A program made the position numbers and the translations under genes. A stretch of DNA of 63,721 nt, counting the filler, from Nemertoderma westbladi (Eukaryota > Animalia > Xenacoelomorpha): the NCBI GenBank assembly GCA_032718475.1. It is 3 parts of 3 records of this genome, joined end to end, with 100 filler letters (N's around TTAATTAATTAA, not from the genome) between each part and the next. Parts side by side here need not be neighbours in the genome. Positions count along the whole stretch, not along the records: positions 31,949 to 59,762 come from JAUCBJ010003129.1; 2 more parts are not named here. The stretch is one strand, 5' to 3'. This document shows positions 49,081 through 50,182 of the stretch, one piece after another. Numbering within the stretch: position 1 is the stretch's first letter; every line of letters begins with the position of its first letter. The notes under the pieces are model-generated. The model made no database searches. It saw only the letters and a program-made list of their open reading frames with translations, and was not told where the DNA came from.

Positions 49081-50182
49081 GCACATTACACAACTCCCTA
49101 CAACTCACTTGATGTACTGCCAGGTTACACAACTCCCTATAACTCACTTGATGTACTGCCAGGTTACACAACTCCCTCAACTCACTTGATGTACTGGCAC
49201 CTTACACAATTCCCTACAACTCACTTGATGTACTGCCAGGTTACACAACTCCCTACAACTCACTTGATGTACTGCCAGGTTACACAACTCCCTACAACTC
49301 ACTTGATGTACTGCCAGGTTACACAACTCCCTACAACTCACTTGATGTACTGCCAGGTTACACAACTCCCTACAACTCACTTGATGTACTGCCAGGTTAC
49401 ACAACTCCCTACAACTCACTTGATGTACTGCCAGGTTACACAACTCCCTACAACTCACTTGATGTACTGCCAGGTTACACAACTCCCTACAACTCACTTG
49501 ATGTACTGCCAGGTTACACAACTCCCTACAACTCACTTGATGTACTGCCAGGTTACACAACTCCCTACAACTCACTTGATGTACTGCCAGGTTACACAAC
49601 TCCCTACAACTCACTTGATGTACTGCCAGGTTACACAACTCCCTACAACTCACTTGATGTACTGCCAGGTTACACAACTCCCTACAACTCACTTGATGTA
49701 CTGCCAGGTTACACAACTCCCTACAACTCACTTGATGTACTGCCAGGTTACACAACTCCCTACAACTCACTTGATGTACTGCCAGGTTACACAACTCCCT
49801 ACAACTCACTTGATGTACTGCCAGGTTACACAACTCCCTACAACTCACTTGATGTACTGCCAGGTTACACAACTCCCTACAACTCACTTGATGTACTGCC
49901 AGGTTACACAACTCCCTACAACTCACTTGATGTACTGCCAGGTTACACAACTCCCTACAACTCACTTGATGTACTGCCAGGTTACACAACTCCCTACAAC
50001 TCACTTGATGTACTGCCAGGTTACACAACTCCCTACAACTCACTTGATGTACTGCCAGGTTACACAACTCCCTACAACTCACTTGATGTACTGCCAGGTT
50101 ACACAACTCCCTACAACTCACTTGATGTACTGCCAGGTTACACAACTCCCTACAACTCACTTGATGTACTGCCAGGTTACAC
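49081..50182 (-). repeat. 39-bp in-frame donor-spanning array (~28 copies)
   Basis: Unit TGTAACCTGGCAGTACATCAA|GTGAGTTGTAGGGAGTTG ([13 protein letters not shown]). Confidence 0.95.

Follow-up and report, generated by a model that had tools for sequence, protein, structure and literature searches.

The BRPF1/peregrin-like host gene and its surroundings

The window, by which the whole analysed stretch of DNA of 63,721 bp is meant, contains parts of a BRPF-like, an Eph-type receptor kinase and a DNA polymerase theta-like gene and is interrupted by two identical artificial spacers (31849-31948 and 59763-59862, each composed of 44 N, TTAATTAATTAA and 44 N), which mark three stitched pieces, so that adjacency of the three genes is not established. 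At an exon-intron boundary of the BRPF-like gene lies a 39-bp minisatellite (49086-50183), which is the subject of this analysis; this array with its parts, the two exons that enclose it and all other exon-intron boundary arrays described below are located on the minus strand.

With four BRPF1/peregrin proteins as tblastn queries, eight exon pieces were mapped between 59227 and 31998. Pfam profiles identified EPL1 (50750-50649), positions 2-16 of PHD_2 (50328-50161), positions 17-35 of PHD_2 together with zf-HC5HC2H_2 (48781-48593) and zf-HC5HC2H (46301-46038) on the translated exons, and the BRPF domain order of an EPL1-like region, a PHD finger, a zinc knuckle and an extended PHD is thereby found on successive exons. 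A protein database search with the zf-HC5HC2H exon yielded 2505 proteins with E<=1e-10, among which vertebrate peregrin/BRPF1 (81% identity) and one unnamed protein of 619 aa (88%) matched this extended PHD exon best. Identity to vertebrate or other BRPF proteins amounts to 79% for 50328-50161 and to ~81-88% for 46265-46056, and the exons flanking the array are intact. Exons for a bromodomain or a PWWP domain were not found in the window, in which the assembly piece that carries the gene ends at a spacer just after exon 32102-31998; the gene model breaks off at this first spacer (31849-31948). Judged by these homologies, the host gene of the array is BRPF1/peregrin-like, and the array is situated inside its PHD1 coding region.

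The exon at 50161-50330, delimited by tblastn with BRPF1 proteins, by the PHD_2 profile positions 2-16 and by the sequence itself, encodes the first half of PHD1, and its last 23 nt supply the repeat unit with its exonic portion; the next exon (48592-48781; Pfam and tblastn) encodes the second half of PHD1 and the start of the extended PHD. Between them, the array-bearing intron is inserted in phase 0, after the His and before the following Cys ligand of the finger. An earlier note on this DNA had named the same two exons and had placed the array inside the BRPF PHD1 finger, next to the native zinc-ligand segment; its exon coordinates agree with tblastn and sequence, and its placement agrees with the exon map from tblastn and Pfam. 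Because BRPF1 homologues align up to the junction at 50161, where the tblastn alignment stops, and resume with the next exon at 48781, the intron is on this homology an old one, which the array only lengthens, and no new intron is created. With its flanking exons intact and strongly conserved the gene looks functional, as it presumably is, in which case the first donor would have to be the main one.

Further coding and repetitive elements accompany the gene. A gene with at least nine LDL-receptor class A repeats (42319-44496) is located on the same strand within the 12.8-kb BRPF intron bounded by the exons at 46056 and 33291. Two near-identical segments (~34000-36100 and 37500-39600) carry long GC-rich open frames, for which no Pfam family was found on the minus strand, as well as 27-bp x 5 arrays, and a third 27-bp array (42616-42730), in the LDL-receptor class A region, is oriented opposite to those. 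In a long BRPF intron, degenerate GGGAATGT-like arrays in opposite orientations flank a 71-bp x 8 array (56374-58948). At one end of the window, a 582-aa open frame (2-1747) that runs off the window end comprises seven in-frame copies of a 54-bp coding repeat, with neither a homologue in the protein search nor a Pfam family; towards the other, a 901-aa open frame (61018-63720) is DNA polymerase theta-like, with cartilaginous-fish (shark) POLQ as the closest named match at 38-40% identity. Neither this search nor the one with the zf-HC5HC2H exon gave a near-identical protein.

The 39-bp array and the other boundary arrays

For 49086-50183, Tandem Repeats Finder reported a period of 39 bp and 28.2 copies, with 98% matches and 0% indels, an extent also traced by an alignment walk and a similarity check of the flanking intron. 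The unit joins 23 nt of exon end to 16 nt of intron start and is repeated head-to-tail; on the minus strand, exon 50330-50161 ends with ...TTCTGCGACATGTGTAACCTGGCAGTACATCAA and is continued by GTGAGTTGTAGGGAGT. The authentic donor CAA|GTGAGT (50155-50163, phase 0), assigned by sequence, tblastn and shuffle count, is the first of 28 identical 9-mers. All 28 occurrences of CAAGTGAGT in the window are on the minus strand of the array, one in each of the 28 units, at a spacing of 39 bp with one step of 38 bp, as compared with 0.45 on average and never more than 4 in shuffled sequence (0/100 shuffles reach 28). The count of ~28 near-identical 39-bp units with CAA|GTGAGT, which the earlier note had given, is thus reproduced both by the repeat copies and by the donor 9-mers, which comprise the authentic donor and 27 extra ones.

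When the array is cut into 39-mers in the register of the first intron base, 24 consecutive units are identical (49225-50160, 936 bp), and decay is confined to the distal units 25-27 (49093-49224; alignment walk and unit comparison), where unit 25 differs by four substitutions, unit 26 is 1 bp short through a deletion and unit 27 bears a single substitution. Over all 28 units six positions are variable, each once. The array starts on a TGTGTAA within exon 50161-50330 and ends on a partial unit of 7 nt which is exactly TGTGTAA, and its flanks are unique on both sides. The unique rest of the intron (48782-49085; sequence and similarity test) ends in the acceptor ttttgtag; older, degenerate units past the array were considered for this segment and rejected, as its similarity to the unit is not significant (score 15 versus a null mean of 13.9, with 153/500 shuffles reaching 15). 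When metagenome contigs were searched for exact copies of the 39-nt unit, none was found. The perfect identity over 936 bp, with decay only at the distal edge, supports a recent expansion of the array or its recent homogenisation by concerted evolution, the two options which had been put forward before.

Besides the 39-bp array, six boundary-array blocks are found in the window, namely two acceptor arrays in the BRPF gene and three donor arrays, one of them split, in the Eph-type kinase gene, and together the seven blocks occupy 13,543 of the 63,721 bp, which is 21% of the window. In the BRPF gene, a 49-bp x 46 acceptor-type minisatellite (46225-48495; TRF, alignment walk and unit comparison) precedes the exon starting near 46265, with a unit of 12 nt intron end and 37 nt exon start and the AG retained in 45/46 units; two blocks of a diverged unit subfamily, with units of 46-52 bp, are present in it. 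The second acceptor-type array, 28 bp x 185 (50742-55921; TRF, Pfam and unit comparison), stands before the EPL1 exon 50750-50649 and reiterates the last 19 nt of the intron and the first 9 nt of the exon (VEY), with AG in 183/185 units. At 5.2 kb, it is the largest array of the window.

The Eph-type receptor kinase gene, which encodes fn3, EphA2_TM, tyrosine kinase and SAM domains according to Pfam, belongs to a separate piece of the window from the BRPF gene. Its 36-bp donor array (alignment walk and Pfam for both blocks) consists of a first block of 21 units with AAG|GTTAGT (22848-23603), also followed by translation, through which the exon frame is open for 14.5 units, and of a second block of 26 units (20556-21491), a reverse-transcriptase element lying between the two; GT is present in 47/47 units. 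A 42-bp x 74 donor-derived array (25418-28521; alignment walk and sequence comparison) carries CTG|GTTTGT, with GT in 74/74 units, versus CAG|GTAAGT at the authentic donor near 30541. It is separated from its own exon by a 1.3-kb retroelement and by an in-frame stop in the first copy, which is 50 nt long (ORF ending ...GAGKCPKIHKFLSRAP), and because these intervene the array is unreadable in frame from the exon. The third donor minisatellite, 25 bp x 8 with GAT|GTAAGT (19998-20195; alignment walk and unit comparison), has a unit not divisible by 3.

Two copies of a 1.34-kb RVT_1 element, 90.5% identical, with shared end points and in opposite orientation, account for these interruptions, one (21502-22843) splitting the 36-bp array and the other (29122-30449) lying between the Eph-type exon and the 42-bp array. 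In the same gene, a 72-bp x 20 array with 98% matches and a largely open frame (VTDEEDPEETALNERENDSSDVDS) but no Pfam family is located between the kinase and SAM exons (16707-18144), and a 41-bp x 3 tandem repeat (15819-15946) spans the stop codon (...SAQEETV*), that is, a coding-end boundary and not a splice site.

The recurrence of the boundary architecture points to a general repeat-forming process which is not specific for PHD1. It also bears on the reliability of the 39-bp array itself. Copy number and homogeneity might be products of the assembly, the real array being shorter or more variable and having been inflated or smoothed by consensus. Twenty-four identical units are what such smoothing would leave, the spacers of N44-TTAATTAATTAA-N44 between the three joined pieces attest to a fragmented assembly, and the available portion of one amphioxus study mentions a mirage, as boundary arrays are termed there, that was misassembled in a genome draft (PMC3087553). 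The six other boundary blocks, however, display ordinary unit-to-unit variation, and the 39-bp array possesses a naturally decayed distal end between unique flanks. While the perfect identity of the 24 units could in part reflect assembly consensus, an array whose copy number and homogeneity are products of the assembly is unlikely.

Extra donors might alternatively serve as intronic binding sites for U1, strengthening recognition of the upstream exon or suppressing premature cleavage and polyadenylation, effects which U1 bound in introns can have. Such a role would fit the presence of GT in every unit of the three large donor arrays (28/28, 47/47 and 74/74). Retention of GT is, however, expected anyway in young homogenised arrays, and acceptor-type arrays are equally common in the BRPF gene, which makes this function most improbable as the reason for the extra donors.

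Reading frame through the repeats

Read-through from the exon in its own frame passes 25 additional thirteen-residue units before the first stop, a TGA (49179-49177) that results from the 1-bp deletion, so that, counting the authentic donor, 26 of the 28 can be reached without leaving the frame or meeting a stop. With use of the distal in-frame donors the shortest intron would be ~400 nt, and all 26 are physically usable, a point against splicing from the first donor. The frame open to 49177, the peptide inserted and the addition of in-frame 13-residue units upon distal donor use, as given in the earlier note, are all correct as translations. A protein domain formed by the repeat units was considered and discarded, as the 383-aa read-through gave nothing beyond the native partial PHD_2 match and two low-complexity matches, neither of which had a stretch that passed.

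From the two large donor arrays with intact sites (36 and 39 bp), both frame-preserving and largely stop-free, it had been proposed that selection acts on mis-spliced products, such that several donors would be used, BRPF isoforms with 13-residue insertions in PHD1 would arise, and donor arrays would be kept frame-preserving and stop-free. In-frame splice products escape nonsense-mediated decay, the unit length is divisible by 3 in three of the four donor arrays of the window, and the accessible part of the F7 study describes two pseudo-sites in use besides the authentic donor in the human 6-16 and CBS genes (PMC1557585). The numbers, however, stay within chance. Under a null of 1/3, divisibility by 3 of the 39-bp and 36-bp units (2/2) has p=0.11, as has that of three of the four donor units of 39, 36, 42 and 25 bp, and with inclusion of the acceptor units of 28 and 49 bp (0/2) the count becomes 3/6 with p=0.32. 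Moreover, the 42-bp unit is divisible by 3 although its array is unreadable from its own exon, and the 25-bp donor array, whose unit is not divisible, retains GT in six of its eight units.

A stop-free intronic part, furthermore, is expected anyway once the unit is divisible by 3, with a probability of 0.77 when four codons are free and of 0.82 when three are. Variant positions are neither clearly enriched nor clearly depleted at the donor 9-mer (~1/11 in the 36-bp array and 4/13 in the 42-bp array versus ~2.8 expected each), and since decay removes out-of-frame products and not in-frame ones, even the direction of such selection is unclear. According to the portion at hand of the F7 study, the F7 (37 bp) and LAMIN B2 (100 bp) arrays are not divisible by 3 and silent, the PDGF unit of 81 bp being divisible (PMC1557585). 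Finally, a conserved PHD finger is unlikely to tolerate extra residues between its His and Cys ligands.

Selection for frame-preserving units, as proposed in the earlier note, is consequently not refuted but is not supported beyond chance by anything in the window, and an in-frame donor ladder maintained by selection is highly unlikely. A compound version, in which the frequency of boundary minisatellites, with seven blocks on two unrelated genes, reflects a repeat-forming process directed to splice junctions and selection on leaky use of distal donors then filters the donor arrays (39, 36 and 42 bp), yielding PHD1-insertion isoforms that escape nonsense-mediated decay, is about as improbable.

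Origin, donor choice and relation to known boundary minisatellites

What is considered very probable is a boundary minisatellite that is spliced out whole via its first donor. As the array begins and ends exactly on TGTGTAA, a single boundary observation, its founding duplication is likely to have resulted from slippage or unequal exchange involving two such heptamers, an exonic and an intronic one at a distance of 39 bp, and recent slippage or unequal exchange would then account for the later growth and homogenisation.

Donor choice would likely be governed by position, the exon-proximal donor being taken as experimentally shown for human F7, since from 23 nt before to 16 nt after the splice point the copies are the same as the authentic site, and no unusual RNA structure is apparent. 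Masking of the distal donors by RNA structure was tested and rejected, as the array folds worse than its shuffles (z = +2.84; 200/200 shuffles fold at least as well), which leaves positional choice as the simplest remaining option. Recursive splicing via the sole AG-type site of the unit, ttgtag|GGAGTT, was also dismissed, since no GT is regenerated there. In vitro, when two identical strong donors compete, the one closer to the acceptor is often preferred, which would predict distal use in the BRPF array and thus speaks against positional choice of the first donor. The human and amphioxus precedents and the conserved flanking exons nevertheless make dominance of the first donor highly likely by analogy. 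At most, the next one or two donors might see low-level use of the kind known from 6-16 and CBS, and such use would insert 13 or 26 residues in frame after the His and ahead of the following Cys ligand of PHD1, in products that would be invisible to nonsense-mediated decay.

With 28 donors identical over 39 nt, the array is a clean natural test case for the choice made by the spliceosome, and because of its location in a conserved zinc finger any mis-choice would keep the frame and show up in the protein. That boundary arrays are so dense in the window shows how much of the intron sequence of some animals such repeats can occupy, and they confront annotation pipelines with many false splice sites. 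Perfect homogeneity, the in-frame position in a zinc finger and the dense sister arrays around it distinguish the BRPF array, and a literature search retrieved no genome-wide study of boundary arrays.

The 39-bp array is an exon-boundary minisatellite of the 'mirage' or F7 type, a kind already described in human and lancelet genes: a short unit is repeated in tandem, the first unit extends across the authentic boundary and the splice signal is reiterated. Units of 12 and 31 bp are known from the human 6-16 and CBS genes, respectively. In human F7, on the evidence of the part of that study available, a 37-bp unit is present 5-9 times and only the first donor is used, the second taking over when the first is mutated, and the choice of the most upstream site was attributed to a 5'-to-3' scanning-type mechanism (PMC1557585). 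The same portion of the report lists the LAMIN B2 (100-bp) and PDGF (81-bp) arrays as using the authentic donor only, the interferon-inducible gene 6-16, with 25 pseudo-sites, as using the authentic donor and the two nearest ones, and CBS as using the two nearest pseudo-sites besides the authentic donor (PMC1557585).

With F7, so far as the excerpt describes it, the BRPF array shares a first monomer across the exon-intron boundary and an authentic donor followed by identical pseudo-donors in a homogeneous tandem minisatellite. The two differ in that F7 has 5-9 units of 37 bp that each contain four exonic bases and do not keep the frame, whereas the BRPF array has 28 units of 39 bp with 23 exonic bases and is in frame, and use of the first donor is proven in F7 and predicted in the BRPF array. 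Manifold reiteration of the donor is likewise common to 6-16, CBS and the BRPF array, but a short ladder of used donors is documented for the former two in that excerpt, while the BRPF array is known from DNA alone.

The amphioxus mirages, of which the original description is reportedly that of Canestro et al. from 2002, extend the comparison to arrays on both sides of introns. In the sections of two reports available (PMC3087553, PMC3902484), they occur on the donor and on the acceptor side, with units of 10-160 bp and several per gene, among others in Adh3, the globins BflGb6 and BflGb9, troponin C and PGBD5. Those sections also describe concerted evolution inside the array, from which the ends are excluded and decay, and duplicated splice sites without aberrant mRNAs in the genes tested (PMC3087553, PMC3902484). 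How mirages form at splice junctions is termed unclear in the portion of the first report at hand (PMC3087553). Relative to these accounts, the arrays of the window are alike in boundary-spanning repeats on both sides, in several arrays per gene, in decayed ends and in splice signals retained in the units; they are larger, with up to 185 copies, and are known here from genome sequence only.

A further parallel concerns the origin of introns. In the model associated with Rogers, and reportedly also in Zhuo et al. (2007, PNAS), introns are said to originate where AG|GT sites are duplicated or arrayed in tandem. As in such intron birth, tandem duplication has reiterated splice signals within a gene and can create new splice choices; unlike there, the intron of the BRPF gene is an old one that has merely been lengthened by its array.
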